32,000 bases of DNA from Parasynechococcus marenigrum WH 8102 (GTDB taxonomy: Bacteria > Cyanobacteriota > Cyanobacteriia > PCC-6307 > Cyanobiaceae): positions 1,110,001 to 1,142,000 of the forward strand of contig NC_005070.1 of assembly GCF_000195975.1 (NCBI RefSeq), written 5' to 3'. A model generated the notes under the pieces. The model ran no database searches, was not told where the DNA came from, and saw only the letters and a list, made by a program, of their open reading frames with translations. The translations under genes and the position numbers were made by a program. Shown in pieces: positions 17,218 to 31,452 of the stretch. Position 1 is the first letter of the stretch. The number at the start of each line of letters is the position of its first letter.

Positions 17218-17280
<63 letters not shown>

Positions 17281-17320
17281 CTTTTTCATCACTAAACCAT
17301 TGTAAATACTGGATTCTTGC

Positions 17321-17360
17321 GTGCCCTAAATCGTGAGTGCTCTAAAACGTGCCCTAAATC
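17321..17360 (+). promoter_or_regulatory. three tandem 12-bp repeats GTGC(C/T)CTAAA(T/A)C, candidate arm-type recombinase or Xis sites
   Basis: Exact GTGCCCTAAATC at 17321 and 17349, with variant GTGCTCTAAAAC at 17337. They lie 40-80 bp inside attL. Confidence 0.4.
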
Positions 17361-17401
17361 CAGCTGGAGCTTTTCTCGAAGGTTGCACGGAGCCGCCAGC
17401 C

Positions 17402-17411
17402 GTACTAGTAC
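17402..17411. promoter_or_regulatory. 10-bp perfect palindrome GTACTAGTAC (copy 1), candidate operator
   Basis: It lies 22 nt upstream of the start at 17433. The identical decamer recurs at 21286. Confidence 0.35.
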
Positions 17412-17432
17412 TGGTGTATTGGGAAGAGGAAT

Positions 17433-17681
17433 GTGTCGGTTGATCATGCGAGCGCCGTTGCAGCGCCAAAGTCGGATCCCGTCTTTCTGCACGTCAAAGC
17501 AGGCATGACCGTGATCGTCACTGACACGGATGGGGCCTGGCGGATGGCTGATGTGATTTGGGTCGATGGCGGTGCCAGGAACCCAAAGGTTCCAACGTTG
17601 TTTCAGGTGGCTGACGTCGATACAGGCGTCATCAACTGGATCAACGCTGACTTAGTGACTCACATCGTCCCCAGGGTCTGA
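17433..17681 (+). CDS. DUF3104-like small cyanobacterial protein (tentative)
   Basis: 82 aa. GTG start preceded by GGAAGAGGA. The pattern W.MADVIWVDGGARNP..PTLFQVADVDTG.INWINADLVTHI recalls DUF3104, from memory. Confidence 0.55.
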   Translation: MSVDHASAVAAPKSDPVFLHVKAGMTVIVTDTDGAWRMADVIWVDGGARNPKVPTLFQVADVDTGVINWINADLVTHIVPRV

Positions 17682-17722
17682 TTTGAGTGGATAGGGTCCA
17701 CGGACTCTTAAGTCCACTTCTC

Positions 17723-17899
17723 ATGAACCGGTCCCCAAATTTCGCCTTCATTGGCGGCACCGTGATCATCGCGATCATGGTCATGACTGCCTTCGCCAAT
17801 TTGGCTAACGCTGGCGGCTGCTCTTACAGCAAGTCAGCCGAAGCAACCCCCGAGCAGGTTGAGCAGAAAAAGAGCGAGGAGCCTGGGGTAGAGGCTTGA
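17723..17899 (+). CDS. small secreted protein or lipoprotein candidate
   Basis: 58 aa with a hydrophobic N-terminus ending in ANAGGC. The ORF opens at GTG 17687. Confidence 0.35.
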   Translation: MNRSPNFAFIGGTVIIAIMVMTAFANLANAGGCSYSKSAEATPEQVEQKKSEEPGVEA

Positions 17900-17932
17900 T
17901 CGCTTAGGACAAGCCACAAGCTGTCCTCGCCT

Positions 17933-17951
17933 AACTGGCACAGTGACAGTT
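17933..17951. promoter_or_regulatory. 19-bp near-palindrome AACTGGCAC-A-GTGACAGTT upstream of sRNA copy A
   Basis: One mismatch from the perfect palindrome found at 21734. It overlaps the expected -35 region, and TATGAT at 17960 is a -10 candidate. Confidence 0.4.
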
Positions 17952-17971
17952 GGAACGCTTATGATCCGAAA

Positions 17972-18056
17972 GTGAGGAAAAAATCTCACGGGTTGGAAAC
18001 AAGGACACAACCCCGTGCGGTTTCGGGACCCCTGCCTTTGGCGGGGGTTTCTTTTT
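17972..18056 (+). ncRNA. Yfr2-family-like sRNA, copy A
   Basis: 5' GUGAGGA, then the hairpin CACGGGUU/AACCCCGUG with GGAAACA in its loop, then an intrinsic terminator (CCCCTGCC-TTT-GGCGGGGG plus a T-run). About 85 nt. Confidence 0.55.
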
Positions 18057-18196
18057 GTGTAGGGACGCCGTCGCCTGCCATCGCACACCTATTGTCAGCT
18101 TGTAGCAACAGCTACAAAACGTTCACCCCTCTTTCGGGGGGCGCAGACACTCCAAGCCACGGAACGGGGACTTGGAATTATCTGAGGAACTATCCG

Positions 18197-18364
18197 ATGA
18201 CTGCTCTTCTTTACAGAGGCCGTCCTTACACGACTCCACAAGCCTCACCCAAATCTTGCGTTGAGCTGACCTATCGCCGCGGTCACTACAACACCTGCCG
18301 CGAAGAAGTGGCTCGCAACGTTCATCAGAGCTTGACTTATAGAGGCGCCACCTACAACAAGTAA
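18197..18364 (+). CDS. DUF4278-domain small protein
   Basis: 55 aa with three (L/T)YR(G/R)..Y motifs (LLYRGRPY, LTYRRGHY, LTYRGATY). GAGGA lies 8 nt upstream of the ATG. Confidence 0.65.
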   Translation: MTALLYRGRPYTTPQASPKSCVELTYRRGHYNTCREEVARNVHQSLTYRGATYNK

Positions 18365-18386
18365 TCAAGGCACCGTAAGGACATGG

Positions 18387-18413
18387 CCCCTGCTACGGCG
18401 GGGGTTTCTTTTT
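18387..18413 (+). terminator. intrinsic terminator, a duplicate of the sRNA terminator
   Basis: CCCCTGC-loop-GCGGGGG followed by TTTCTTTTT. Near-identical to 18029-18056 and 21829-21856. Confidence 0.6.
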
Positions 18414-18504
18414 GACATCCGTTGCCCACAGGGTTAGTGAATCAAAATTTTGCCTGGGGCTCGCAAAAGCCGCTCATGGCACCATCCCTAGTGCTCTAGG
18501 GCAC

Positions 18505-18534
18505 AAAAAAACCCGGTGTGACTTGCACAACGGG
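18505..18534 (-). terminator. minus-strand intrinsic terminator inside repeat copy A
   Basis: The minus strand reads CCCGTTGTG-loop-CACACCGGG followed by T7. The only difference between copies falls in the loop. Confidence 0.5.
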
Positions 18535-18737
18535 CTGGGTGATGGGGGAAATCTAAATATGGCTTAGCCGCCAAGTACTGACCAGTCCCACATATGGTGT
18601 CACCCATTACTGGTCAGAACTTCGATACACAATTAAGGAGTTCCACGGGGCACAAATGATGTGGCACAAATGAGTCCAATGCGGCTAGTTTTGTCGGGTC
18701 CGGCCGGGTGATGGGGATCAGCCGAAAGGATTGAAGG

Positions 18738-18766
18738 CCTCGGGGATCTCTCCGGGGTTTCTTTTT
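18738..18766 (+). terminator. plus-strand intrinsic terminator at the end of repeat copy A
   Basis: CCTCGG-8 nt loop-CCGGGG followed by TTTCTTTTT. The difference between copies falls in the loop. Confidence 0.5.
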
Positions 18767-19311
18767 GGCCGCCTCAGTCGCCGCTCTGTCCTGGTTCGGA
18801 AGTGCTGACCGTAGGTATTTGTACTGCTAGCCATAAGCCCGCGAGTGCTTATGTTTCGACCAATCAGCTGCTTGTAGGCCCCCTTTCGACGGCTCTTGGC
18901 CTTGCGCCTGTCGCCTTGGAAACGCCGATCCATGACTGACCGCACTCTCAGCATCGCCACTGCACTGCGTGAAGCACAGCTGCAGTATCTTGAGGCTTCT
19001 CTTGCATCAAAGTCAGATTCCAAGCCTCAGCCCCTGGCTCAAGCTCCCAAAGACAATGACGAACTAGACGCGACTGGTCGTTAACGGTTGCTCTTCAGTC
19101 TTGATCAGCACGTCATTTTGAGACAACCCGGCTCCTCGAGATTGTCTCTGGTGGCTTTTGTTGGGGCGATTGTCTCAATAGCCCTGGGCGTCTTGCTCGC
19201 CTGGTTCACTTCCAGAATGACTGTCTGGTTTTTCAGTCCTGACCGGTATCGGCGTTAGGGCTTTTCAGAAATTTGAATCCTCATCACTCATATCTGCAAC
19301 GCCATCGGGCA

Positions 19312-19509
19312 CTACATGTCGATCGCTCTGCCCAACTCCAGTGGGTATCCCAAGGCAGCCCCTTCTATTTGTTGGGCTGACTCACAGCCGTTGACCAAAT
19401 CAATGATGTGGGACCACGGAACCGCGAGGAAAACGATGTTTGCCCCGAGCGATGCGATTACGTATAACAAAGCTCGCAACGGCACATACCTTTGAGTCAA
19501 ATACTCCAT
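19312..19509 (-). CDS. small membrane protein (hypothetical)
   Basis: 65 aa from the ATG at 19509 with one TM helix (ALLYVIASLGANIVFLAV). A frame-disrupted homolog lies at about 22280-22371. Confidence 0.35.
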   Translation of the reverse strand: MEYLTQRYVPLRALLYVIASLGANIVFLAVPWSHIIDLVNGCESAQQIEGAALGYPLELGRAIDM

Positions 19510-19851
19510 GTGTTTTAAGACATCTAAAGATCGCAGAAAGCTCTCCCTGGTAATCGCTCGTGCCAAGGAGGCTTTATCTGCCAGCTGCCGGGTCGCTCTC
19601 CCGGTGCTGCCTGGACAGTTACGCGTTCAAGCGTTGTCTGCATGGACCCCAAATATGGGGGCAAGCGAGGGAGATGGCAGTGTCTTTTTCTACAGGTTTT
19701 AGTTTCCGGAAAATCATCCGTGAAACTCTATTCAATGGTATCACGGACTACTGACGAGACGCCCTCCCTGCTCCCACCTGGAACCGTTTAGCACTGGTTT
19801 CAGCCGTCGATCACATTGGGCGCCCCACCTCGATCTGTTGTTGGGGGTGAC

Positions 19852-20037
19852 CTAATTGATCAGCTTTTCGTCGATACCGTGTTCGCGAGCGCATTCGACT
19901 TTGTCGCTCGTATCACTCACGCACTGCCCATAATCCTTCCATTGCTCTTGGCTTGGTCCGCAAGATGCCAAGAAAATGCCGGTTGCAGTTCCTACAGCTA
20001 CTAAAAGACGACGCTTAGAGGTAATGGTGGTACTCAT
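19852..20037 (-). CDS. small lipoprotein candidate
   Basis: 61 aa with a signal peptide and lipobox-like FLASC. Confidence 0.45.
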   Translation of the reverse strand: MSTTITSKRRLLVAVGTATGIFLASCGPSQEQWKDYGQCVSDTSDKVECAREHGIDEKLIN

Positions 20038-20128
20038 CGTGTCGGGACCTCGGTCGACCTCAGTTGTATTGATCTGACGTTATCGAGAACAAAACTTCTA
20101 TCAACATGTCTGTGGTCTTAAACGTCGA

Positions 20129-20344
20129 TCATGATTGACGTTCCAGATTTAGCAGCCTGCGCCTTGCTTGAGCGTCCTCTTGCTTAGCCTCTTCTGCCTC
20201 GGCGCGTAGAAAACGCTTCCTTTGAGCGGATTCATAGCCACTCATGTCTGGCTGCTTCTCCTCGGCTTGTTTGGGCTTTGGCTTGGGAACTGGCTCGGGC
20301 TTATCCAAACCCATCAAAAGTGGGTGGATTCCTCTACGACTCAT
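20129..20344 (-). CDS. small charged protein, SAQRKRF-motif family, copy 1
   Basis: 71 aa. The N-terminus MSRRGIHPLLMGLDKP and the motif GYESAQRKRFLRAEA are shared with the ORF at 22740-22898. Confidence 0.5.
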   Translation of the reverse strand: MSRRGIHPLLMGLDKPEPVPKPKPKQAEEKQPDMSGYESAQRKRFLRAEAEEAKQEDAQARRRLLNLERQS

Positions 20345-20727
20345 TTGTTTGATTTGCTACGTGGTTGTCGCGACGTGATCTTCCTGACCCAATCGGACCA
20401 GTAGATCATGTTGAATCCAAATTTGATTCGTGGTGTTGATGAAGACATTTGAAGACAACTGTCGACAGCTTTGCGTTTGGGGCTCGGTTGATGGCTTCGC
20501 TCTGCTCTCTCTGGTACTGGTCCACCACTGTTTTTGGAGGATCTTGAACGCTTCGGATGTATCCGAGAGGCGTCTGACCCTTCCCGCGGTCTTCTAGGTT
20601 GAGTGGGATAAGACTCTCCGCTAGCCGTAGCCACTACTGTCTTGATCGACCTGGCGACCTAAGTCAAAACCCTCTAAAAAACCTATACAGGTTCGGTGTA
20701 GCAATAGCTCTTCCCAAGTGGGACACC

Positions 20728-20877
20728 ATGACTGACGAGAGTCAGGCAATGGTCAAGAAGGTCGGCCTCATCGGTGGTGGAGGCCTCCTCCTGCTTGCCT
20801 TCAGCAAGATGCTTTTACCGCTGGCCCTGCTCGGCGGAGGTAGCTACGTCGCCTGGCGTTCCCTCAACAATAAGTAG
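20728..20877 (+). CDS. small membrane protein (hypothetical)
   Basis: 49 aa with a Gly/Leu-rich TM segment. Confidence 0.35.
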   Translation: MTDESQAMVKKVGLIGGGGLLLLAFSKMLLPLALLGGGSYVAWRSLNNK

Positions 20878-20882
20878 GGGGC

Positions 20883-21029
20883 ATGGAAGACAGCACCAAT
20901 AAGGCCAGACGAAGACTCTTCATCTGGGCCATCAGCATCAATGTCGTCGCTTGGGGCGGCTACTTGTTTTTGACCAAGGTCATGGGATTTGACTACGAGC
21001 TGATGAGACAGGCCAGGCTGGACGGCTAA
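20883..21029 (+). CDS. small membrane protein (hypothetical)
   Basis: 48 aa (MEDSTNKARRRLFIWAISINVVAWGGYLFL...). AGGGGG precedes the ATG. The ORF is below the length cutoff of the ORF track. Confidence 0.3.
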   Translation: MEDSTNKARRRLFIWAISINVVAWGGYLFLTKVMGFDYELMRQARLDG

Positions 21030-21285
21030 GGATTAGAACACGTCGGGCCTGACGCTGATTACCTTTTAGGGTCTTTGAGTAGGGATCAGCAGCTGCCAGC
21101 CCTTCCCCTTTGCTGGGGGTTGATTTCGTAAACACCCTGATGTGCCCGAATCATCGACCGATTGCTTAGAAGGCAGTTGCTCTGTCAGTGGTGCCATTGC
21201 TTTTGAGGTGTTTTTTCGTGCTTGCACGGAAGATTGATCTCATCCCTGCCCGTAGTTCTCGGTAGTTGCACAAAGCCACCTTCCT

Positions 21286-21295
21286 GTACTAGTAC
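21286..21295. promoter_or_regulatory. 10-bp perfect palindrome GTACTAGTAC (copy 2) plus the adjacent partial copy GTACTAGC
   Basis: 17 nt upstream of the ATG at 21312. Identical to 17402-17411. Confidence 0.35.
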
Positions 21296-21311
21296 TTGCG
21301 TACTAGCGGCC

Positions 21312-21515
21312 ATGGCGATGGAGGAGTGGGATTTTGTTGACGATCGCGACCTGCAGGGCTGGAAGGGTGGTGTCGTTTGCATTACATGCCAGCACTTCGC
21401 CTATGGCGTGGATCGTCACTGCCACACGTTGCTGGCCTGCAACCTCAGGCGACGCCAGCTGGCGCAAGATGATCACCTAAAAAAGCGCTGCAAGCTTTGG
21501 GCTCCTACGTCTTGA
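21312..21515 (+). CDS. small Cys/His-rich protein (possible zinc-binding)
   Basis: 67 aa from the ATG at 21312, with C-x2-C, H-C-H and C residues. A decayed 3' paralog lies at 23044-23121. Confidence 0.45.
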   Translation: MAMEEWDFVDDRDLQGWKGGVVCITCQHFAYGVDRHCHTLLACNLRRRQLAQDDHLKKRCKLWAPTS

Positions 21516-21533
21516 GATCAATCTTTTGTGTCC

Positions 21534-21577
21534 GTGAGAGTGGCGCAGTTTGGTAGGGCGCTTGCTTTGGGAGTAAG
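21534..21577 (+). pseudogene. tRNA-Pro(UGG)-like 5' fragment (acceptor 5' strand, D arm, anticodon arm; no T arm)
   Basis: GTGAGAG-TG-GCGC-AGTTTGGTA-GGGC-G-CTTGC-TTTGGGA-GTAAG. The downstream sequence lacks a T arm or an acceptor 3' strand. Confidence 0.4.
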
Positions 21578-21733
21578 CCGTGAAACCAGCCAAAGCCCCT
21601 CTGGCACCTTGAAAATCTTCTTCCCAGTTATTGAGACTGGAGACACTTGGAGACAAACCTCTCCGAGGCAAGAAAATTGCTTGCCTATGAAGCAAGCGCG
21701 CTCTTCGGGACAGGCGGCAAAGCGTCTACTCGA

Positions 21734-21752
21734 AACTGGCACAGTGCCAGTT
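21734..21752. promoter_or_regulatory. 19-bp perfect palindrome AACTGGCAC-A-GTGCCAGTT upstream of sRNA copy B
   Basis: The 9-bp arms are exact. It occupies the same position relative to the sRNA as 17933-17951. Confidence 0.45.
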
Positions 21753-21772
21753 GGTAGAAGTAGGTTATGGAA

Positions 21773-21856
21773 GTGAGGAAAAATCTAACGGGTTGGAAAC
21801 AAGGACACAACCCCGTGAGGTTTCGGAGCCCCTGCCTTTGGCGGGGGTTTCTTTTT
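21773..21856 (+). ncRNA. Yfr2-family-like sRNA, copy B
   Basis: It has the same GUGAGGA 5' end, GGAAACA loop hairpin and terminator as copy A, with few substitutions. Confidence 0.55.
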
Positions 21857-22226
21857 GAACTCAGTTATCCACAAGGTCAGTGGATCCAAACCTTGCCTGG
21901 GGCTCGCAAAAGCCGCTCATGGCACCATCCCTAGTGCTTTAGGGCACAAAAAAACCCGGTGTGACTCGCACAACGGGCTGGGTGATGGGGGAAACCTAAA
22001 TATGGCTTAGCCGCCAAGTACTGACCAGCCCCACATATGGTGCCACCTATTACTGGTCAGAGCTTCAATACACAATTAAGGAGTTCCACAGGGCACAAAT
22101 GATGTGGCACAAATGAGTCCAATGCGGCTAGTTTTGTCGGGTCCGGCCGGGTGATGGGGATCAGCCGAAAGGATTGATGACCTCGGGGATCACTCCGGGG
22201 TTTCTTTTTGGCCGCCTCAGTCGCCG
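21857..22226. repeat. structured noncoding repeat, copy B
   Basis: Collinear with 18414-18783. It contains the equivalent minus-strand (21948-21977) and plus-strand (22181-22209) terminators. Confidence 0.8.
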
Positions 22227-22739
22227 ATGTCGTTCCAGGCAGCCCCTTCTACAGGCAGTGCTTACAAGCCAGCTACCTGATCAAGGAAAGGACTGCAGAG
22301 ACCGCGAGAAGAGCTTGCTCTTCCCGAGCGATGCGGTGTCTGCACACACAAGCTCCTCCTGATACGGAGCCATGCGTCGTATGCACTGACTCTTTTCAGC
22401 ATTCCGTTGCACAGAACGGTGTCCCCCGCGATCGCTCACGCGGGAGACAGGGGGTTCTGCCAGCTCTCAGATCGCTCTACTGAGGCCGTCGCGTGTGGAA
22501 GAACTCCCCATGTCCGCGCCCAACAAATATGGGGTCAAGCAGCGTGTTCGGCAACACGTCTTTTGGTCATTTTTTGATTCCAGAAAATTTTCCGTGAAGG
22601 CCTGTGAATCTGGTAATCGGCAACACCGACAGCAGGACGCTCATCCTCCAAATCACACTTCACGACTGACTTCTCATAAGGTCGGATGATGTGGGTCATC
22701 AGCTATGGCCAACCGTTAGACGTCGATCACGTCGGTCGT

Positions 22740-22898
22740 TCAGCCAGCCTCCCTGACCTCGTCATCATCTGCCTCGGCACGAAGGAAACGCTTGCGTTGG
22801 GCTGACTCATAACCAGTCAGCTCGGTTTCCTTTTTCTCGGTTTTGCGAGCAGGCTTATCAAGCCCCATCAGGAGGGGGTGGATTCCTCTTCGGCTCAT
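22740..22898 (-). CDS. small charged protein, SAQRKRF-motif family, copy 2
   Basis: 52 aa (MSRRGIHPLLMGLDKPARKTEKKETELTGYESAQRKRFLRAEADDDEVREAG). Below the ORF-track cutoff, translated by hand. Confidence 0.45.
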   Translation of the reverse strand: MSRRGIHPLLMGLDKPARKTEKKETELTGYESAQRKRFLRAEADDDEVREAG

Positions 22899-23043
22899 TG
22901 GTCTGGACCTTTATTTGGATCTCGCGTCGTGGTCTCTCGGCCCATTCGCGTGTGGCACTCTCGCGAAAAAACGTCCATACCGCGATCGGCGACACAAAAC
23001 GATCAAACGTCGATCACGTTGGGCGTTCCACCGAAGGCTCTGA

Positions 23044-23121
23044 GGCCAGCTGGCCCAGGGCGACCACCTCAAGAGGAGATGCAAGCTCTGGGCACCAACG
23101 TGGCGTGCTGAAGCTATCTAG
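23044..23121 (+). pseudogene. 3' remnant of a paralog of the Cys/His-rich gene at 21312-21515
   Basis: About 79% nucleotide identity to 21453-21509. It encodes QLAQGDHLKRRCKLWAPT versus QLAQDDHLKKRCKLWAPT and is preceded by an in-frame TGA. Confidence 0.4.
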
Positions 23122-23125
23122 TCAG

Positions 23126-23320
23126 TCAGGCCTGAGCTTCCAGCAGCTCAAGCTCGATTTCACGTCCTTTCAGCCGGTTGAGCATGTCTTGGCTGTGATC
23201 AATGGGCGTTCCGTAGTACTCGAACTCCATCTGGTACTGCGGCAGGACGGAGCGCAGTCCACGGCGTTTCTGCCGAGCCAGATAACGATGAAAGCGGTTG
23301 TATGACCTTGATCGACTCAT
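23126..23320 (-). CDS. small basic protein (hypothetical)
   Basis: 64 aa. A strong GGAGG lies 4 nt upstream of the ATG. Confidence 0.5.
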   Translation of the reverse strand: MSRSRSYNRFHRYLARQKRRGLRSVLPQYQMEFEYYGTPIDHSQDMLNRLKGREIELELLEAQA

Positions 23321-23436
23321 GGCACCTCCTTCAGTTGTAAGTCAGTTGTAAAGCTCCTTTAGGGGTGTGGACTGTGTTGGAACGAACCATCTGGAAAACT
23401 TCAGCACGAAGAAAAACCGCTGAACGCTTTGGTCTC

Positions 23437-23661
23437 CTACGTCCCAGTCGGCCATGGGTTGGGCTCCTGAGGCTGGTTGAGCCGCAACCGCTCTCCCAAA
23501 ACGGGATTTCCCGTAGTGGAACTATGCAGAAATGCATAGTTCAGCCGTTCCTGTTCTTGGCGGATGTAGCGCTTGCGTTGGGCTGAGCAGAGCGCATCGG
23601 CCTCCTCAAGGTCGACGTGCCAACCAGCGGCTAGTCGATGGTCGGCTTCTTCATGCGTCAT
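23437..23661 (-). CDS. hypothetical protein with an SAQRKRY motif
   Basis: 74 aa. CSAQRKRYIRQEQERL resembles the motif of the proteins at 20129 and 22740. Confidence 0.4.
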   Translation of the reverse strand: MTHEEADHRLAAGWHVDLEEADALCSAQRKRYIRQEQERLNYAFLHSSTTGNPVLGERLRLNQPQEPNPWPTGT

Positions 23662-23803
23662 GAACCTCCACCGGCATCGGCACTCGGCCCTGCTGACCGT
23701 TGATGGCCTCTTGCTTCGACTGCAGCAGCTGCTCAGCTAGTTGCTCTGGTGTTGGCGTATTGGCAGCACGCTCAGCAGCTTCAGCCTTTCGGTTCTCGTT
23801 GAT

Positions 23804-24142
23804 CTAGTTGATGGCACGTTCCATCGCTTCCTGACGCATCTGCTCATGCAGCTGTGGCCGCCGAATCTTCAACTCGCGATCCAGGTCAACCGACAGCGCT
23901 TCACCAGCCTCCATGGCGGCTTTCAACGCCAAGCTCAAAGGACCACCCAGCAAGATTTCCGCTTGCTGAGCCACCGCAGGGTTTAGTGCGCGGTAGTTGG
24001 AGCGCCACGACATTGCGCGTGGATCGTCCCAGGTCCATGGATTGACGTCACTTGGGATTTGCTGCGGATTGAGGCCAGACATTTCGGCAGCGCGAATCAG
24101 CTCACGCAGCTCGAACTCAACGGTGTTGTGGGTGGTGGTCAT
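23804..24142 (-). CDS. hypothetical protein (ends at a TAG followed by a 50-codon in-frame extension)
   Basis: 112-aa ORF. The same frame stays open from 23803 down to 23654. Confidence 0.5.
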   Translation of the reverse strand: MTTTHNTVEFELRELIRAAEMSGLNPQQIPSDVNPWTWDDPRAMSWRSNYRALNPAVAQQAEILLGGPLSLALKAAMEAGEALSVDLDRELKIRRPQLHEQMRQEAMERAIN

Positions 24143-24160
24143 TGCTTTGAGAAGGCAGGG

Positions 24161-24577
24161 TTAAACATCGACTGCCTTTCCGTCTTCGATGGCTTGAAGC
24201 GTCCTGCGAATCTCTTGCAGCTGCTTCCGTTGCTCAGCTTCCAAGACGTTCTCGCGTAGAATCTTGAAGCTTTCGCTGATGGCCTGGGTTCTGGCGTAAG
24301 CCTTGACCTTGGGATCCAGCGCAATCTTGATCAACTCGTCAGCCAGCCTTGGCGCGGCTGAAGTCAGAAGGTTGTTGGCGACGTTGATGTTCTCGCGTAC
24401 CAGCGATTCGATGAACTCTTCAGCCCTGCTGTCTCGATACCACTTGCGAAGACATGGTGCTTTGACCCCAACAGCAGCTGCCGCATCTGCCCAAGTCGAG
24501 CCATTGGCGCAGAGCGTCAGCCCCTTGATGATGTGCGGCGGGATTGAGTCGTAGCGGTTGATTTCGGTATAACTCAT
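24161..24577 (-). CDS. HTH protein with terminase-small-subunit-like layout (tentative)
   Basis: 138 aa. N-terminal HTH-like GSTWADAAAAVGVKAPCLRKW, then a helical or coiled C-terminus. ATGA overlap with the upstream gene. Confidence 0.55.
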   Translation of the reverse strand: MSYTEINRYDSIPPHIIKGLTLCANGSTWADAAAAVGVKAPCLRKWYRDSRAEEFIESLVRENINVANNLLTSAAPRLADELIKIALDPKVKAYARTQAISESFKILRENVLEAEQRKQLQEIRRTLQAIEDGKAVDV

Positions 24578-24834
24578 GACGCTCCAGGGTGAAATCCACC
24601 AGCAATAAGTTGTTTACGCTTTCTTAACCTTGCTGTGGTGCTGAGGTTAGGAGCCCTGCGGTCCCTAAGTTCTTCTGGATAAATGCCATCTATCATCCAG
24701 TGCTGATATGCCAGTCGCGCAAATTCGTCTGCATCACGCTTATTTCTGCTGAACCACTGCTTTGCCATACGATTGCAACGTGACATGACGATCCATTCGT
24801 CCGTTGTCAGGTTCCAAGTCATCATCAAAGGCAT
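24574..24834 (-). CDS. hypothetical protein, first gene of the minus-strand small-gene operon
   Basis: 86-aa ORF with an AT-rich region upstream. Confidence 0.45.
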   Translation of the reverse strand: MPLMMTWNLTTDEWIVMSRCNRMAKQWFSRNKRDADEFARLAYQHWMIDGIYPEELRDRRAPNLSTTARLRKRKQLIAGGFHPGAS

Positions 24835-24874
24835 CTTTCTTCAATACTAACGAATAGTTTTTTCCATGCGGCTG

Positions 24875-24883
24875 TGCTACAAT
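24875..24883 (+). promoter_or_regulatory. extended -10 promoter candidate TGcTACAAT
   Basis: Lies in the AT-rich divergent intergenic region. It would give a leader of about 255 nt for the recombinase gene. Confidence 0.25.
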
Positions 24884-25144
24884 AGTGATTAAGATAGTTC
24901 AGAATTGTTGCTGTTTCAGAGGGTTCCCTGACTCCTGTTATAAGCAACAGAAAAAATGAACCCTGCCCCCTTAGTAGTCAGCAATACTGATAGCAATAAT
25001 AGTTATCTAAGCAGCGATAAGCATAAGAAATAATCACTGAAGATGCCGGAACGTTGGTGATAGCCAAACAGGAACATCGCGTAAAATACTAATAAGACGC
25101 TGTGGCAAACCAGCACTGCGTTCTTAGCTATTACAACTAAACAA

Positions 25145-25720
25145 ATGAAGTCCAATCGCCACGGTCAGAGTCGTGTGCTGGACACGAACCAGCTCGACCT
25201 GCTCATCTCAAATCTTTCTGATCAATACCACCAGCTGGTGGCTGAAGTGTGTCGCCGCACTGGCTGCCGCGTTGGTGAAGCAACGCAACTGACCTGGGGC
25301 ATGGTTTCGGAATCTGCCATCACGTTCCAGCGCGGTATTACCAAAGGCAAGCTGGCCTCAAGGTCTGTGCCGGTTACGCCAGTGTTGTGGGAAGCCCTGC
25401 GCGCCTGGAGAGATGTCTGGGTAGTGCGGCAGGGTCGTGATCCTGTGGCTGGTGATTACCTCGTACCAGGACAATTTGCTGGTTCGTGTCTCAGTACGCG
25501 AAGCTTTATGGATGCTCTTGAAAAGGCGGCTGCTGAATCGGGCCTAGAAGGCGTCTCAAGCCACAGTTTCCGGCGTTCGGCACTAACTAGTGCTCACAGT
25601 GCTGGAGTGCCTCTGAGGGTGCTTATGGCCCTGTCTGGGCATAAATCCATGTCAGCCCTGCAGCGTTACTTAGAGGTGACGCCGGCTCAACGTGTTGCTG
25701 CCGCTGCTGCCTTTGCATAG
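25145..25720 (+). CDS. small tyrosine recombinase, catalytic domain only
   Basis: 191 aa with the full R-K-HxxR-H-Y set (TGCRVGEA, TKGK, HSFRRS, GHKS, LQRY) and no N-terminal core-binding domain. Confidence 0.8.
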   Translation: MKSNRHGQSRVLDTNQLDLLISNLSDQYHQLVAEVCRRTGCRVGEATQLTWGMVSESAITFQRGITKGKLASRSVPVTPVLWEALRAWRDVWVVRQGRDPVAGDYLVPGQFAGSCLSTRSFMDALEKAAAESGLEGVSSHSFRRSALTSAHSAGVPLRVLMALSGHKSMSALQRYLEVTPAQRVAAAAAFA

Positions 25721-25731
25721 GGCCTTTACCT

Positions 25732-25753
25732 AACTACACAAATAGGTGTAGTT
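25732..25753. other. perfect 8-bp inverted repeat AACTACAC-N6-GTGTAGTT just after the recombinase stop
   Basis: Read directly from the sequence. No U-tract follows it. Confidence 0.4.
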
Positions 25754-25819
25754 GCGTGACGCTTTCAGTTGCCAATTGCTCTCGTTTTTTAGCTTCGACG
25801 TAATTAATTCTCTGGCCCA

Positions 25820-25984
25820 ATGTCTTTTGTATCTTCTCGCCAACAAAAGGTCACGAATGCCCTCCTCGAGCATTTAGCGCGTGAGGCTGAAATTGAAACC
25901 AACAGACGACGATTGGAAATCATGGAAATGCGGCGGCTGCAATCTTGGCAATTCAAGGCAGAGGCTTCTGGCTCTGGCTCGTGA
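25820..25984 (+). CDS. small helical protein (hypothetical)
   Basis: 54 aa, translated by hand. It ends 5 nt before the convergent ORF at 25990. Confidence 0.3.
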   Translation: MSFVSSRQQKVTNALLEHLAREAEIETNRRRLEIMEMRRLQSWQFKAEASGSGS

Positions 25985-25989
25985 CTGCT

Positions 25990-26220
25990 TCAGTGCAATG
26001 GGCAGAGCTTGCCGATGGGTTTGCCGGTGTCACCGGCTGGCCTTTTGCCATCGACATGGATGACGATCCAGGGCTCGTAAGTAGCGACACCATCAGGTGG
26101 TTCAGGAACTTGCTCGCCTTCGAAGACGCCAGTGACAAGCCATAGCGGCGGCTGCGTTTTCGCCAAGTGTATGTCCTGCGCTTTGCGCAACAGTCGAGCC
26201 AGCTCGCGTGAGTTGTCCAT
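25990..26220 (-). CDS. hypothetical protein
   Basis: 76 aa. A GGGGG stretch lies 9-13 nt upstream of the ATG. Confidence 0.4.
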   Translation of the reverse strand: MDNSRELARLLRKAQDIHLAKTQPPLWLVTGVFEGEQVPEPPDGVATYEPWIVIHVDGKRPAGDTGKPIGKLCPLH

Positions 26221-26513
26221 TCGTTAACCCCCGTTGAGAGCAATTACTAACGGTCTACCGTTTTCCATTGACGCTCGCTTGCAGAGGCGCATCATTCAGC
26301 CATGACAGGCTTGGTTTGCGGCATCACTGCTCTTTGGATGCACTGGTGGTGGTGCTGCAGAACGACGAACTCCCCTGCGCTCAAGAGAAGCTGGCCGTAT
26401 CCGCGCCAGTGGAAAGCTGCGGCTGATTTGTATGAAAGGCCCTGCCGGCGGCATCGCCACCTCAAAGCACGAACCAGGCTGAGTTATCGCAGCCTGCGCA
26501 CTCCATCAGCGGC

Positions 26514-26804
26514 CTAAGTATTTCTCTCAGCTCGTTGGCGAAGCTTGTTCAGTTGATTGTTGAGGCGGAACTTCAGTTGACGAAGGTTTTCGAGGTTGGC
26601 GCGGTATTCGCCGGCGCTCCAGTGCTGTGGATGCGCAACTCGTATTTCCAGCTCTCGTAAGCGTGAGCGATCAGATTGCATTGCGCGCATCAAGAGGGAA
26701 TACCAGCGTGTCGTCGACTGATCAGCGGTGGCATGGTTATTTTTCCCTATGGAGATACGCGGCTTCGACAACGTGAATTTCTTGAGGTTGCCACCCTCTG
26801 CCAC
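26514..26804 (-). CDS. hypothetical coiled-coil protein (start uncertain)
   Basis: The GTG start lies inside the left iteron array. An alternative ATG at 26690 gives 58 aa. Confidence 0.3.
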   Translation of the reverse strand: MAEGGNLKKFTLSKPRISIGKNNHATADQSTTRWYSLLMRAMQSDRSRLRELEIRVAHPQHWSAGEYRANLENLRQLKFRLNNQLNKLRQRAERNT

Positions 26805-26839
26805 CTACTTGTCACCACTTTGCCACCTCAAATGCCACC
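26789..26839 (-). repeat. left iteron array: five TG(C/T)CACC repeats with spacings of 10, 11, 11 and 12 bp
   Basis: Repeat starts at 26789, 26799, 26810, 26821 and 26833. The inner 21 nt are the exact reverse complement of 27026-27046. Confidence 0.8.
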
Positions 26840-27025
26840 CATATATCCCAGTCGTATCAATCGATTTGCGGGATAGCTGATCCGAATTTGGGGGGCCCCC
26901 AGTGTGTTGCACAAACCGGCGGCTTAATACTCAACAGTGATCGCACCAGCCTTGAAATATATGTGGGGGGGTATCAATTCTGTATCTCTACTGCTTCTAA
27001 TCCGTCTCTACCACTGTGATTTGGG

Positions 27026-27077
27026 GGTGGCATTTGAGGTGGCAAACCGGTGGCAAACGGGTGGCAAGTGGGTGGCA
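27026..27077 (+). repeat. right iteron array: five GGTGGCA repeats with spacings of 12, 11, 11 and 11 bp
   Basis: Repeat starts at 27026, 27038, 27049, 27060 and 27071. The array ends 3 nt before the stop of the 769-aa gene. Confidence 0.8.
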
Positions 27078-27080
27078 CGT

Positions 27081-29390
27081 CTAACGAACCACCCGGATTG
27101 ACAAGCCGCCATCAAACACTTGGACTAAGCCACGGCTTTGCAGCATCAGCGCCATTTGCTTTAGTACGGCAAGTGTTGGTCGATCCTTACTGCTCCAGCT
27201 TTTGCGGATTGAACTAAGTGCAACACCTCGACCTGGCGCTTTGCCTTGCTTCTTACGAGCTTTCTCCAGCAGCTTGTCGGCGAGCTCAAGCATCGGATTC
27301 CTGGCACGTTCGTGAAGCTCAACTGCCCTGGTTTTGCCGGCCATCACCAAGTTGGCGGCCAGCTGGAGCGAACGCTCGGAAACAACCGTGGCGGGTTGCA
27401 CCATGCCACGCTCCACCAGTTCTTCTTGACCGGTGGCAATACGGATGAAATGGATTGCCGCCGCTACTCGCAGCACCTGCCCAGGTCCCTTCGCCCACAG
27501 TGCTTCAACCTCTTCACTGCAAGCCTGCAGCGATAAATTCTCAAGCTGGTTGAACAAGCTGGTGAAGAGTTGCTCTGCAACTGCTGACAGCACGTAGGCA
27601 TGGTTCCCGTCTTGGAGGGCAGCCAAATAGAGATTGCCAAGAACAGCTGAAAGTTTCTCGGTGTTTACGTCACCGTCCACCAGCTGACGACGTGAACGAG
27701 GTAGGTGAACAAACAACGGCCTGGAGTTGAAGCCATTGGCGTTACCCGCCTCTAGTTGATCCAAAAATACCTTGGGTTGGATGCCGCCGATCACCCCCAA
27801 CTTCCCCGCACGAACCTCGCGGGATTTCTTGGCATCGGCAAAGACGTCGTTGCTGTAGGCACCGTCGTAGCTCGACAGCCAGAACTCAACATCACCCACA
27901 CCAGCACCACCCTCATCAGCCATCTGCTTAAGCCAGCCGTTTAACTCATCACGCACCAGCAGCCCTGGTACGTCTTCGCCATGGATCGCAAAATCTGCAC
28001 GGATCCCTTGGGTCGATGGCGCGGTGTAGATCAAATTGCGTTTTCGAAAAGCCGGTAGGTCTTCACCATCAGCAGCAGCGGTTTTGCGTCGTTGCTGCTC
28101 ACGTTCGTTCCAGCCATCAATGAACGCGATGGGCTTTGCCATTGGGCCGTTAATCAGCCATTGAAGCAACACAGATTTGGCCGTGCCACTGCTGCCGATG
28201 TGGAACACCCACACCGTGGGGATTTCCTCCATCGACCGACCACGGATGCGAACCTGAGGCGGCAACATCGCGGCGACGCCGGCCATCAACGTCATCACGA
28301 TGGCCTCATCACTGAACTTCAAGCCATCCCGCAGAACGCGGAACATCGGTAGCCAGTCGGCTGGAACGTAATCCGCCAAATGGATTTGGGGTGGCTCGCC
28401 ACGAAGCAGCAGGTCATCAAGTGCATCAGCAATATCCTGTTGACGCTCCAGCGACTCTCGATATTGCTCCGCAAACTTTGCAAGACCAAAGCCGTTTGAT
28501 CTAGTCCCGTATTGATTGACTAGCAACTGCACTTCATCTGCACTTGCACCCTGTTGTATTGCCTCTTTAATCTTGGTGTGTGCATCGTTTTCGTGCTGTT
28601 CGAGCGTCTCTATTGCTGACTTCCCCTTTGGCGTCGTTAGGCCATGACGTGCTAATTCCACTCTGGCCAGGTATTCATCAACTAGCTCATCAATATTACG
28701 GCGATTAAACGGCTTGATAATGTTTGCCCACTCTTCTGCAGAGCAGTTAATAGGTTTTTCCCACTGATCCTTTGGAAGCAGGAATAAATTAGCATTTTCG
28801 TGCTTTCCTCCCTTTCTAAGCTTTTTAGCAGTCCTTAAATTACGAACAAGTCCATGGCAAATACCTGGTTCACCGTCTGGATAGATGTGATGCTGTAGCT
28901 CCTCGCTCAGCAAAGTAAGCTCATAAAAGCGTGACCGCCACGTATTTGCCTCTACAAATTCGAATTGCATCAAAAGATCAATGGCTAGTGTGGCGAGGTC
29001 TCCACCACGTCGAAGAGAAAAACGATCATATTGCTGCCAACCTTGCTTAAGTAGATCAATGCAGTCACTTATCCATTGATCAACATCAATAGATAAATTC
29101 CTGGCATTGTCGCACTTAGCCTGGATTTTGTCGAGCGCAGACTGTGATGCCCACCACCGTTTATCTAAGACATCCCACAGCCAACAGGCCATTGGATGAA
29201 GTGGTGTGTAGTTTGGCTCTGGTTCACGATCGTCGTGGCCAAGCCATACGTCAAACAGATCACTTGCATAGTCCCAATGCTTAACGTTCCAGCCATAAGT
29301 CTCTTTGAGCTTCTTAAGCCGTTCAATCTCGGCATAGATAGGAGAATCGTCCTCAGGTGCTGAAGACTGCTGGACTGGTGCGTGCGCCAC
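27081..29390 (-). CDS. DUF3987-type P-loop NTPase (helicase-like replication protein) with an unassigned ~350-aa N-terminal region
   Basis: 769 aa. Walker A-like GSSGTAKS, Walker B-like LLVRDELNGW, plus GGIQP and NGFNSRPLFV motifs in the order recalled for DUF3987. Confidence 0.8.
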   Translation of the reverse strand: MAHAPVQQSSAPEDDSPIYAEIERLKKLKETYGWNVKHWDYASDLFDVWLGHDDREPEPNYTPLHPMACWLWDVLDKRWWASQSALDKIQAKCDNARNLSIDVDQWISDCIDLLKQGWQQYDRFSLRRGGDLATLAIDLLMQFEFVEANTWRSRFYELTLLSEELQHHIYPDGEPGICHGLVRNLRTAKKLRKGGKHENANLFLLPKDQWEKPINCSAEEWANIIKPFNRRNIDELVDEYLARVELARHGLTTPKGKSAIETLEQHENDAHTKIKEAIQQGASADEVQLLVNQYGTRSNGFGLAKFAEQYRESLERQQDIADALDDLLLRGEPPQIHLADYVPADWLPMFRVLRDGLKFSDEAIVMTLMAGVAAMLPPQVRIRGRSMEEIPTVWVFHIGSSGTAKSVLLQWLINGPMAKPIAFIDGWNEREQQRRKTAAADGEDLPAFRKRNLIYTAPSTQGIRADFAIHGEDVPGLLVRDELNGWLKQMADEGGAGVGDVEFWLSSYDGAYSNDVFADAKKSREVRAGKLGVIGGIQPKVFLDQLEAGNANGFNSRPLFVHLPRSRRQLVDGDVNTEKLSAVLGNLYLAALQDGNHAYVLSAVAEQLFTSLFNQLENLSLQACSEEVEALWAKGPGQVLRVAAAIHFIRIATGQEELVERGMVQPATVVSERSLQLAANLVMAGKTRAVELHERARNPMLELADKLLEKARKKQGKAPGRGVALSSIRKSWSSKDRPTLAVLKQMALMLQSRGLVQVFDGGLSIRVVR

Positions 29391-29472
29391 GGTAAACTCC
29401 GGGTGTGGACGGAAAAATGCTGGCGAGCTTTGCGTTCAAAGAGAGGGCCACCGTTCCAGCGGTGGCCTTCTT

Positions 29473-29670
29473 TTATGAGCAGTGTTCCGAGAAACCCTGC
29501 GCTGTTGCCCACTGCTCCAGGGCAAAACGAAGAACTGTCGAGTCACTGACACCCTCAACGAGTGCAGTGGTCTTCACGAAAGAAACAATCGGCTCTGGAA
29601 ACCGCGCGTGTAGCGCAGAAGTCATTGGCCCTTGATGTTTCTCCCGCTTGGCAAATGCCTGGATCGACAT
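29473..29670 (-). CDS. RHH-like small DNA-binding protein (tentative)
   Basis: 65 aa. The strand-helix-helix pattern ALHARFPEPIVSFVKTTALVEGVSDSTVLRFALEQW. Confidence 0.4.
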   Translation of the reverse strand: MSIQAFAKREKHQGPMTSALHARFPEPIVSFVKTTALVEGVSDSTVLRFALEQWATAQGFSEHCS

Positions 29671-31334: not shown

Positions 31335-31452
31335 CGAAGCGCGCCCGAAAAGCTACCCCGTTTGCACCGTTGCACAAGGTTCTGGCCAGAGCTGCGATAG
31401 CGGCTGTGTCGGCGGTGCTTCATGCGGCACTTCGCGAGATCCCCTGCAGCGC

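Follow-up and report, generated by a model that had tools for sequence, protein, structure and literature searches.

Sequence comparison of the window, by which we mean the whole 32-kb stretch of DNA analysed, revealed two copies of one element, copy A at 18412-18783 and copy B at 21855-22226, lying in an integrase-bearing island with a tRNA-Ser repeat at its bounds. The first-pass annotation had reported the element twice, and this was borne out by alignment and by nhmmer, which found exactly two copies in the window. Region 18386-18783 was 93.5% identical to 21828-22226 across 399 nt; between 18451-18783 and 21894-22226 there were 12 substitutions in 333 nt (96.4% identity), matching the earlier estimate of about 96% over the last ~330 bp with 12-13 substitutions. 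The first 37 nt of the element, with 11 differences between the copies, are the least conserved part. The 12 substitutions lay in the loops of the two terminators, in the palindromic boxes outside their key positions, or in spacer with no assigned feature, much as the earlier description (mostly in loops or outside stems) had it, and the C to T change at 18496 in the hairpin CCCTAG-TGCT-CTAGGG indeed gives a G-U pair. Together with Cyano-1 and Cyano-2, each copy forms a larger cassette that has been duplicated, and copy B probably arose by duplication of the entire cassette, in the order Cyano-1, element and convergent Cyano-2. This cassette is a recurrent unit, and the anatomy of such islands is here corrected for annotators. 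The features of the element are as follows, with the coordinates of copy B in brackets.

21855-22226, no strand: second copy, whole element, from sequence comparison and nhmmer
18422-18430 (21865-21873), plus strand: DnaA-box-like motif at the left edge, degenerate in copy A (TTGCCCACA) and perfect in copy B (TTATCCACA)
18479-18494 (21922-21937), no strand: NrdR-like box i, GCACCATCCCTAGTGC, 4 of 6 key positions, just outside the minus-strand terminator
18505-18534 (21948-21977), minus strand: intrinsic terminator of the minus-strand RNA, hairpin 18512-18534 and U7 run (plus-strand A-run 18505-18511)
18505-18622 (21948-22065), minus strand: predicted sRNA RNA-L, ~118 nt, 5′ end placed 7 nt from the -10 and 3′ end at the terminator, with consensus fold
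18537-18547 (21980-21990), minus strand: motif 1, GGGTGATGGGG, reading CCCCAUCACCC on the minus-strand RNA, abutting the terminator and predicted to be unpaired in the consensus fold
18550-18565 (21993-22008), no strand: NrdR-like box 0, AATCTAAATATGGCTT, 6 of 6 key positions
18578-18617 (22021-22060), minus strand: inverted repeat around box ii, CTGACCAG at 18578-85 and CTGGTCAG at 18610-17
18585-18600 (22028-22043, GCCCCACATATGGTGC), no strand: candidate NrdR box ii, GTCCCACATATGGTGT, 6 of 6 key positions, the "CACATATGGTG core" of the first-pass annotation
18627-18642 (22070-22085), no strand: half box iii, ACACAATTAAGGAGTT, 26 bp after box ii and overlapping two -10-like hexamers
18640-18767 (22083-22210), plus strand: predicted sRNA RNA-R, ~127 nt here and ~117 nt in relatives without the duplication, from the consensus fold
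18649-18673 (22092-22116), plus strand: tandem GGCACAAATGA, units 18649-59 and 18663-73, a lineage-specific duplication
18699-18730 (22142-22173), plus strand: hairpin H2 with motif 2 (GGGTGATGGGG, 18706-18716), inner stem UGAU/AUCA and GGGG loop
18736-18766 (22179-22209), plus strand: intrinsic terminator of the plus-strand RNA, from a terminator scan

The homolog search proposed earlier did find further members: 86 unique relatives were recovered from Synechococcus and Prochlorococcus genomes and marine metagenomes, and an nhmmer subfamily profile extended to Prochlorococcus and other Synechococcus members. All 86 have a common layout, in which an outward minus-strand terminator with CCCCAUCACCC immediately before it on that strand is followed by an A/T-rich centre, a plus-strand hairpin with GGGUGAUGGGG and a plus-strand terminator; the outward-facing intrinsic terminators enclose ~260 bp, and GGGUGAUGGGG on the plus strand lies ~160 nt from the CCCCAUCACCC site. 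The genome search pattern demanded both motifs and the metagenome pattern demanded the left terminator, so the invariance of the motifs and of the left terminator is partly built in. No Rfam 15 covariance model (including Cyano-1, Cyano-2, Yfr1, Yfr2, 6S and tmRNA) matched within 18412-18783 or 21855-22226, whether the gathering score or E ≤ 5 was applied, nor over the element in 29 related loci. A full-text literature search for the conserved motif returned only unrelated primer sequences, nothing was found in the supplement of Hou et al. 2016, and the named MED4 ncRNAs (Steglich et al. 2008), compared by coordinates and 13-nt 5′ contexts, gave no convincing match to the family. Judged by these comparisons, the element is a previously uncatalogued noncoding locus of marine Synechococcus and Prochlorococcus, and is not strain-specific.

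The genomic settings of the family are varied. In WH8017 the element lies between a membrane-protein gene and an ORF next to era, a core-genome site, and in one HLII Prochlorococcus between the PTOX and hli genes; together with the tRNA-Ser island in the window, these contexts indicate that the element is autonomous. In many loci Cyano-1, a Yfr2-family gene, is directly upstream. The DnaA-box-like sequence TTWTCCACA occurs once in the window and is present upstream in 47/86 family sequences; it is kept in two loci (L055 and L034) despite unalignable flanks, and HLII Prochlorococcus has TTTTCCACAG at the matching relative place.

Inspection of the reading frames shows the element to be noncoding. 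In copy A the 39-codon ORF on the minus strand (18488-18607) has an ATG start, and in copy B it is reduced to a 28-codon TTG ORF. The earlier statement that no ORF is conserved is not strictly correct, as both copies keep open a plus-strand frame of 51 codons (18412-18567). It begins inside the T-run of the upstream terminator and has no credible start, and the conserved TTATCCACAG is read in different frames by different subgroups; therefore it is not a gene. A tiny ORF at motif 2 was likewise rejected as a gene, as it is not universal.

On the left side, an A-run of at least five with a hairpin (mean -10.2 kcal/mol) is found directly upstream of motif 1 in all 86 unique family sequences, with entirely different hairpin sequences between clades. 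The minus-strand terminator annotated earlier at 18505-18534 is thus upheld, although the consensus terminator scan of the window missed it owing to an internal mismatch. In a strand test based on G-U asymmetry, the left hairpin was not more stable on the minus strand and was on average slightly stabler on the plus strand; its strand is assigned from the universal A-run. The metagenome copies have motif 1 variants AGG, TGG and AAG at the first two positions. The 8-bp inverted repeat described around the core is present, with its outer ~4 pairs alone kept across 25 sequences (67.8% of cells paired); its pair 10/44 occurs as AU, UG and GU, a weak covariation at one pair. The "CACATATGGTG core" that it encloses is best read as a putative NrdR box acting at the DNA level and not as an RNA motif.

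On the right side, the consensus fold of RNA-R consists of a 5′ hairpin, then H2, then the terminator. In this region many G-U pairs are tolerated only on the plus strand, and the reliance of H2 and the right terminator on such pairs assigns both to that strand. The plus-strand terminator, annotated earlier at 18738-18766, was found at 18735-18766; a hairpin with a T-run follows motif 2 in 84/86 family sequences, and the hairpin is stabler on the plus strand in 31/45. The stems of H2 differ by clade (CGGC/GCCG, CGGU/ACCG, GGCCG/CGGUC and UACUG/CAGUA), with the outer pair changed from CG to UA in 6 sequences. The tandem GGCACAAATGA is present at 18649 and 18663 as described, but only the second unit is conserved; the first lies within a 9-14-nt insertion (14 nt here) confined to the lineage of the two window copies and L012, and is missing from most homologs.

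The element had been called highly structured, which is overstated: folding of the whole element gave z-scores of -2.3 for the plus strand and -0.15 for the minus strand. In subfamily alignments of 23-25 sequences no base pair of RNA-L or RNA-R had compensatory double changes, and superfamily-wide one H2 pair had double-sided changes. Covariation support for a structured RNA is weak. A G-quadruplex reading of the G tracts was rejected, as the number of tracts is not conserved.

NrdR is a dATP/ATP-sensing repressor of ribonucleotide reductase (RNR) genes. Its box has 16 bp with key positions C4, A6, A8, T9, T11 and G13 (PMC13584703), and we took two boxes 14-17 or 24-27 bp apart as the spacing of an operator. 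The window contained 15 matches at 6/6 key positions against 5.5 ± 2.2 in shuffles, the key-position pattern having little information content and an A/T-rich centre that resembles a -10 element. Box ii was found at +46 to +51 from motif 1 in 40/44 subfamily sequences, and also in most superfamily clades; C4, A6, A8, T11 and G13 are invariant, and variation is confined to positions not conserved in NrdR boxes. In copy A, half box iii has only C4 and A6 of the key positions. In at least five mutually unalignable clades, box pairs scoring 5-6/6 have linkers of 24, 25 or 27 bp, matching the 24-27 bp linker class that NrdR is reported to bind in vitro. Box i is equivalent to a 6/6 box in WH8017-type loci (ACGCTAGATCTGGTGT, ACACCAGATCTGGTGT). 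The least certain is box 0, which is present in only 17/44 subfamily sequences; the 19 bp between it and box ii do not match any spacing at which NrdR binding is known. Relative to the motifs, the boxes and the -10-like hexamers have other positions in HLII Prochlorococcus and in some clades of Synechococcus.

No RNR gene adjoins the element; nrdJ is ~13 kb away, at the end of the window. In the syntenic genome, the promoter of nrdJ contains a pair of boxes with a canonical 16-bp linker, conserved in four Synechococcus loci. A regex search of 1.2 Mb of fetched loci gave no NrdR protein; a figure legend places nrdR among the genes on either side of phycobilisome clusters in picocyanobacteria. 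Two further candidates were discarded. An NrdR box in the Cyano-2 promoter reaches 6/6 in some copies only, and the conserved CCCCATATTTG there is better taken as a -10 element (CATATT). The other was nrdJ mRNA as a target of RNA-R: the stretch of the nrdJ promoter that is complementary to RNA-R precedes the likely -10 and is thus probably not transcribed.

Half box iii contains two -10-like hexamers, CACAAT on the plus strand (18628-33) and AATTGT on the minus strand (complement of 18629-34), offset by 1 bp; both are weak matches to TATAAT, and a consensus promoter scan requiring two hexamers found no promoter. The sequence RCACWATK is present at +88 to +91 in 42/44 subfamily sequences. These hexamers may form a central symmetric bidirectional promoter giving two divergent RNAs, RNA-R (plus, ~120 nt) and RNA-L (minus, ~118 nt), with starts predicted near 18640 and 18622, a separation of 18 bp. 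NrdR bound to box ii and to the half-box over the -10s (26-bp linker) would switch both promoters off at high dATP, and a need for dNTPs would lead to joint expression of RNA-L, RNA-R and nrdJ.

Pairing between the C-rich, single-stranded tail of RNA-L and the G-rich top of the RNA-R hairpin could extend over 11 nt, and in some clades over as many as 16 nt. Applied to the full-length RNAs, duplexfold was not informative (z = -0.6 to -1.4) and was replaced by the cofold gain measured against shuffles. The minimum-energy dimer used the 11-nt motif, with a gain of -19.1 kcal/mol versus -11.3 ± 3.6 in shuffles, 2/150 of which were as good; cofolding of four distant members gave similar results. 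Either one RNA would titrate the other, or the motif may serve each RNA as a seed on mRNAs. Two RNAs of one promoter neutralising each other is an odd design, which counts against the explanation we favour.

The first-pass annotation had proposed one or two convergent structured RNAs or a protein-binding scaffold. The noncoding character and the terminators on both strands stand, and the element most likely encodes two RNAs and carries protein-binding sites, both as predictions; the transcripts would be divergent and not convergent, as the terminators face outward from the central promoter region. Our best explanation, to which we give about an even chance, is a self-contained locus in which a symmetric bidirectional promoter repressed by NrdR would produce two divergent ~120-nt sRNAs able to pair mutually over 11 nt. 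The broader claim, that a mutually complementary sRNA pair with a symmetric bidirectional promoter and direct NrdR control extends from high-light Prochlorococcus to marine Synechococcus, is put forward only tentatively and may well not hold.

A first alternative, which we consider unlikely, is that the element works at the DNA level only, as an array of NrdR and perhaps DnaA sites that titrates or positions proteins, with the terminators insulating it from neighbouring sRNA genes and GGGTGATGGGG being a degenerate NrdR half-site. The several NrdR-like boxes in each element, the perfect DnaA box at the left edge and the weak RNA covariation would fit, and when the motif is reverse-complemented (CCCCCATCACCC), its first 8 nt are also found in box B of the nrdJ promoter, CCCCCATCTGTGG. 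The 11-16-nt invariant motif is, however, far more conserved than true boxes, which vary at non-key positions; its distances to the boxes are not compatible with NrdR, and the DnaA box is single, with no cluster. Moreover, canonical U-run terminators lie immediately beside both motifs in 84-86 of the 86 members, which argues for selection on transcripts.

An improbable alternative, corresponding to the structured RNA of the first-pass annotation, is one long structured plus-strand RNA of ~350 nt, running from a point shortly past the upstream terminator to the terminator at 18766, with the A-run and hairpin at 18505-34 as an internal stem-loop. It would place both GGGUGAUGGGG motifs on a single RNA, and is favoured by the plus-strand fold (z = -2.27), the slightly greater mean plus-strand stability of the left hairpin and a consensus fold of -49 kcal/mol on the plus strand versus -39 on the minus. 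Against this, the A-run of at least five directly 5′ of the hairpin, kept in 86/86 sequences of AT-rich Prochlorococcus and GC-rich Synechococcus alike, is the signature of an opposite-strand terminator. There is also no conserved promoter upstream, the left end that such an RNA would include is the least conserved (11 differences in 37 nt) and is replaced in L134, L146 and L180, and the plus-strand consensus fold of 18412-18502 is empty.

It is very unlikely that the element is a type I toxin-antitoxin-like pair, in which RNA-R would encode the peptide MSPMRLVLSGPAG (18670-18711) with the UGA inside motif 2 as stop, and RNA-L would be a divergent antitoxin pairing over the end of the ORF. An ATG-started ORF ending at this UGA is present in 60/88 family members, with peptides such as ...RLVLS(S/G)P(A/V)G (Synechococcus) and MTNxLTV... 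(low-light Prochlorococcus) and with some indels of 3 nt, and in divergent type I systems the toxin RNA and its antitoxin have a short stretch of complementarity. Yet 28/88 sequences, including the whole HLII group and WH8017, lack an ATG-started ORF in frame, the peptides of most members have 3-19 aa and are too short for a membrane toxin, the peptide is poorly conserved (MYPAGLFLPHPAG versus MSPMRLVLSGPAG), the start codon shifts between lineages, and open frames so short are expected by chance. No conserved small hydrophobic toxin ORF was found among the 88 sequences, the motif-2 UGA ORF varying in length and sequence.

It is extremely unlikely that the element is the remnant or end of a mobile element such as a MITE or IS, or that the tRNA-Ser island has its attachment site here: the island carries an integrase and is bounded by the tRNA-Ser repeat, there are two copies in the window, and L162 shows recombination between its direct repeats, but neither copy has flanking terminal inverted repeats, target-site duplications or anything else resembling the IS or MITE end considered earlier, the two copies are the only ones in the window and both are inside the larger Cyano-1/Cyano-2 cassette, the family is also at a core-genome site in WH8017, and no match to phage or viral contigs was found in scans (8 chance matches only with the tandem GGCACAAATGA pattern on viral contigs, and none by BLAST against phage genomes).

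Protein regulators are few in Prochlorococcus and marine Synechococcus, and much of the regulation in both depends on small RNAs. To our knowledge, only a handful of sRNA families are common to both (Yfr1, Yfr2, 6S and Yfr103), and this locus adds a candidate family in both genera with a testable regulatory input. NrdR is commonly regarded as an RNR-specific repressor. If the boxes in this noncoding locus are real, the NrdR regulon would be wider, with the element as a non-RNR member and its RNAs as the first sRNA members. dNTP status, as in S phase or during the phage-driven dNTP drain, would then be coupled to regulation after transcription in the phototrophs that are most abundant in the ocean. 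Nucleotide pools would thus act directly on control by RNA, with a bearing on diel cell-cycle timing and phage infection.

The predicted locus can be compared with several known systems. Like the NrdR operators of RNR promoters, it has 16-bp partly palindromic candidate boxes with C4, A6, A8, T9, T11 and G13, of which two would be in helical phase, and overlap with predicted -10 elements, and the nrdJ promoter of the same organism carries a canonical pair. It differs in that its boxes lie inside a noncoding locus with no RNR gene after them, the linkers in the family are 24-27 bp while 15-16 bp predominates in the operators, and the second candidate box in the window copy is a half-box only. 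The symmetric bidirectional promoters that Warman et al. are said to have described in Nat Microbiol in 2021 reportedly combine a 1-bp offset of the -10 hexamers with start sites separated by 18 bp; CACAAT/AATTGT and the predicted starts would have the same geometry, although the match is predicted from sequence and the hexamers are poor ones.

In the divergent type I loci tisB/istR-1, shoB/ohsC and zor/orz, the toxin RNA and the antitoxin share a short complementary stretch. The element resembles them in its two predicted divergent short transcripts, short perfect complementarity and direct repeat in the DNA, but it has no conserved hydrophobic toxin ORF, and the complementarity, which is in the 5′ UTR in those loci, is near the 3′ ends of both RNAs here. 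Yfr6, which we take to be probably a Gln-II riboswitch plus a small ORF, is encoded in the trnS-nrdJ region, like the element's island. Yfr8/Yfr9 and Yfr6/Yfr14 of Prochlorococcus MED4 are overlapping ncRNA pairs in which one partner of each is induced early in phage infection (PMC2518516). They too are opposite-strand pairs in genomic islands, but they overlap by 160-225 nt and are ~250-290 nt long, and their published 5′ end sequences (13-nt contexts only) do not match HLII family members.

A further parallel is the crosstalk of Yfr1 and Yfr2 in picocyanobacteria, in which two sRNAs have complementary conserved single-stranded motifs (PMC6778093). As predicted for RNA-L and RNA-R, these are two cyanobacterial sRNAs of the abundant type with complementary single-stranded motifs, and a Yfr2-family gene, Cyano-1, is found directly upstream of the element in many loci. 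The element differs in that no Rfam Yfr or Cyano model matches it, its motifs are unrelated in sequence, CCCCAUCACCC/GGGUGAUGGGG as against ACUCCUCACAC/GUGAGGA, and its partners are encoded back-to-back in one locus.

The two copies of the element, a noncoding locus of about 370 bp (copy A, 18412-18783; copy B, 21855-22226), align at 93.5% identity over 399 nt by BLAST (18386-18783 versus 21828-22226). From 18451 to 18783 the copies differ by substitution at 12 of 333 nt (96.4% identity), in agreement with the roughly 96% of the first-pass annotation, and the first 37 nt of the element hold 11 differences; a profile search of the window found no third copy. Other features described at first pass were also recovered: the minus-strand ORF of 39 codons, whose ATG is lost in copy B; the CCCTAG/CTAGGG hairpin, where T replaces C at 18496 and a G-U pair results; the terminator on the minus strand, with its hairpin at 18512-34 and its U-run at 18505-11; and the plus-strand terminator, found where it had been placed. 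The 8-bp inverted repeat (18578-85/18610-17) is present, but across the family only its outer four pairs are kept. The tandem GGCACAAATGA is likewise present but is not a family feature, its first unit lying within a 9-14-nt insertion found in one lineage only.

Rfam analysis revealed that the element's neighbourhood is a cluster of picocyanobacterial noncoding genes, and for the element itself, earlier described as of no known class, relaxing the threshold to E ≤ 5 still gave no Rfam match. The whole sRNA cluster is contained in an integrative island (17218-31593), with the following features.

Features of the island around the two element copies (window coordinates)
17218-17299: partial tRNA-Ser repeat, 82 nt, one island boundary
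17966-18028 and 21767-21827: Cyano-1 (Yfr2 family; Rfam), upstream of each element copy
19409-19611 and 22288-22490: Cyano-2 (Rfam), convergent, downstream of each element copy
25145-25720, plus strand: second phage-type integrase, within the island
27081-29390, minus strand: DUF3987 protein, within the island
30192-31334, minus strand: XisAC-like integrase, within the island
31505-31593: tRNA-Ser(UGA), the other island boundary

The unit of Cyano-1, element and convergent Cyano-2 is duplicated as a cassette (17966-19611 and 21767-22490); at copy A a glutamine-II riboswitch and a DUF4278 small ORF (18117-18364) are inserted between Cyano-1 and the element, and about 620 nt ahead of Cyano-2. 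The same order was seen repeatedly among metagenome loci. A conserved CCCCATATTTG with a -10-like CATATT precedes both Cyano-2 genes (19650-19660, 22524-22534) and resembles an NrdR box in some copies only; further upstream in copy B is a palindrome, CGTGTTCGGCAACACG (22543-22558), possibly the one that Hou et al. 2016 mention for the Yfr103 promoter. The cluster also holds two diverged minus-strand copies of a small ORF (MSRRGIHPLLMGLDKP...; 20129-20344 and 22740-22898; 67-74% DNA identity). A 58-nt inverted repeat (26799-26856/27009-27066), 81% complementary and with many GGTGGCA-type repeats, lies just upstream of the DUF3987 gene and may represent an origin or iteron region for the island. 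In the protein-coding part of the window, a 32-nt inverted repeat (11285-11316/12801-12832) is 94% identical and about 1.5 kb apart. The window's GlgC protein has the same sequence as GlgC of genome CP047955.1 (2.47 Mb).

Relatives of the element were found by several searches. When the translated 51-codon frame was compared with predicted proteins, the four matches were spurious ORF calls, but their contigs contain full-length homologs with 82-95% identity. One genome per species was then scanned for pairs of GGGTGATGGGG motifs spaced 140-170 nt; among the 120 matches listed, at least about 42 were in Prochlorococcus or marine Synechococcus and shared the layout, the others listed being unrelated tandem repeats or one Roseateles gene. 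Most of these false matches are due to GGGGTGAT-type heptamers and octamers, which form long tandem arrays in many filamentous and other non-marine cyanobacteria (loci L018, L019, L026, L027, L044, L046 and others). Metagenomes scanned for the left terminator contributed 47 more loci, giving 45 unique full-length copies. The search for further homologs proposed at first pass yielded 86 unique family sequences. A profile built from the close subfamily also detects the Prochlorococcus and other Synechococcus members. As judged by comparison, the layout is common to the family and conserved in both genera. In Synechococcus WH8017 the member occupies a core-genome site, flanked by a membrane-protein gene and by an ORF adjoining era, and in one HLII Prochlorococcus it lies between the PTOX and hli genes; these varied sites indicate that the element is autonomous and independent of the island. 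In the metagenome copy L162 (765-977), what normally follows motif 2 comes straight after the left terminator and motif, everything between having evidently been deleted when the two GGGTGATGGGG direct repeats recombined. Elsewhere the window has a single near-match to the motif, GCGTGATGGGG (2249-2259, plus strand; one mismatch), which lies 50 nt inside the 6-phosphogluconate dehydrogenase gene and is consistent with chance.

An A-run of at least five and a GC-rich hairpin, which read on the minus strand form an intrinsic terminator, directly precede motif 1 in all 86 unique sequences, and a hairpin and T-run follow motif 2 in 84 of 86, an invariance of motifs and left terminator that is partly built in because the search patterns demanded one or the other. 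The hairpin sequences differ completely from clade to clade. Since the two terminators face outward, transcripts ending there must start mid-element and diverge, contrary to the convergent RNAs first suggested. At the left edge of the element, copy B has a perfect DnaA box, TTATCCACA (21865-21873), and the window contains no other; the site is degenerate in copy A (18422-18430) and kept in 47 of 86 relatives, in HLII Prochlorococcus as TTTTCCACAG. One nrdJ promoter region (locus L182, 3982-3990) likewise carries TTTTCCACA.

Mobile and coding readings were both rejected. A MITE or IS end can be dismissed, as there are neither terminal inverted repeats nor target duplications. A tiny ORF ending at a UGA in motif 2 occurs in roughly two-thirds of members; 28 of 88 lack it, and it varies in length and sequence. 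The earlier statement that no ORF is conserved needs qualifying, as a 51-codon plus-strand frame (18412-18567) is open in both copies, but this frame starts in the T-run of the upstream terminator, and the conserved TTATCCACAG is read in different frames by subgroups, so it is not a gene.

For the plus-strand RNA the consensus fold is consistent, G-U pairs being numerous and broken pairs nearly absent. In 31 of 45 sequences the terminator of this RNA gains stability when read on the plus strand; no strand asymmetry was found for the left hairpin. Covariation, the analysis of which was proposed at first pass, is weak, compensatory double changes being absent in the subfamily and rare in H2 across the superfamily. 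In the predicted folds, motif 1 on the minus-strand RNA (CCCCAUCACCC) is unpaired and abuts the terminator, and motif 2 on the plus-strand RNA forms the top of hairpin H2 (stem UGAU/AUCA, loop GGGG). The two predicted RNAs are perfectly complementary over 11 nt, a stretch that reaches as much as 16 nt in certain clades of Synechococcus. The minimum-energy dimer in a joint fold uses exactly this stretch, with a gain of -19.1 kcal/mol; shuffled partners gave -11.3 ± 3.6, and 2 of 150 did as well. Results were similar in four distant members. These models suggest that the two RNAs may pair through the conserved motif. Metagenome copies show G to A at the first two motif-1 positions, which gives U in the minus-strand RNA, so pairing with G could persist; one lineage has T there, and the pair is broken.

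The NrdR box spans 16 bp, is partly palindromic and is conserved at six positions (C4, A6, A8, T9, T11, G13), its synthetic consensus being ACACAACATCTAGTGG (PMC13584703). Published boxes are paired with 15-16 bp between, and in vitro NrdR also binds pairs spaced 24-27 bp apart. Every clade has three to four occurrences of a CAC(C/T)A-N4-T(G/A)GTG motif in each element. Box ii (18585-18600, GTCCCACATATGGTGT), the core noted at first pass, matches all six key positions, which are invariant across the family together with T14 and G15, while positions 5, 7, 10 and 12 vary. Paired boxes scoring 5-6/6 with linkers of 24, 25 or 27 bp were found in clades that cannot be aligned to each other: HLII Prochlorococcus, low-light Prochlorococcus and at least three Synechococcus groups. 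In copy A, box ii is followed 26 bp on by a half-box only (18627-18642), and another 6/6 box (18550-18565) lies 19 bp upstream. The window has 15 six-of-six matches, versus 5.5 ± 2.2 in shuffles.

The window itself ends in the C-terminus of the class II ribonucleotide reductase NrdJ (31653-32000, minus strand, running off the end), adjoining the tRNA-Ser. The full gene and promoter were taken from a syntenic contig with the same island (L183), where, at 18873-18920, NrdR-like boxes ACACTGCCAATGGTGG and CCCCCATCTGTGGCGT are separated by a 16-bp linker and followed by a -10-like TAGGGT. This two-box arrangement is common to four marine Synechococcus loci, and we therefore conclude that the RNR gene of these organisms has a canonical NrdR-type operator. 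The element's boxes fit the general consensus even better. Across the family they agree by comparison with NrdR operators in box sequence and, in the clades with paired boxes, in spacing, and NrdR may bind them. No nrdR was found within the sequence of the compared loci; one published figure legend includes nrdR among picocyanobacterial genes.

The element belongs to a noncoding family of picocyanobacteria that is uncatalogued, although individual transcripts are possibly already listed under strain-specific names. The best-supported reading is of two divergent sRNAs with a central promoter bearing NrdR-type boxes, mutually complementary via the conserved motif. A scan of the element for a two-hexamer promoter consensus found nothing. 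In 42 of 44 subfamily sequences, RCACWATK lies at +88 to +91 from motif 1; it contains a plus-strand CAC(A/T)AT and, offset by 1 bp, a minus-strand (A/C)AT(T/A)GT, with A at position 2 and T at position 6 kept in both -10-like hexamers. By the usual rule of 7 nt from the -10, transcription would start at purines near 18640 (plus) and 18622 (minus), 18 bp apart, giving RNAs of about 127 nt on the plus strand and 118 nt on the minus strand. This predicted geometry is the same as that of the symmetric bidirectional promoters reportedly described by Warman and colleagues in 2021.
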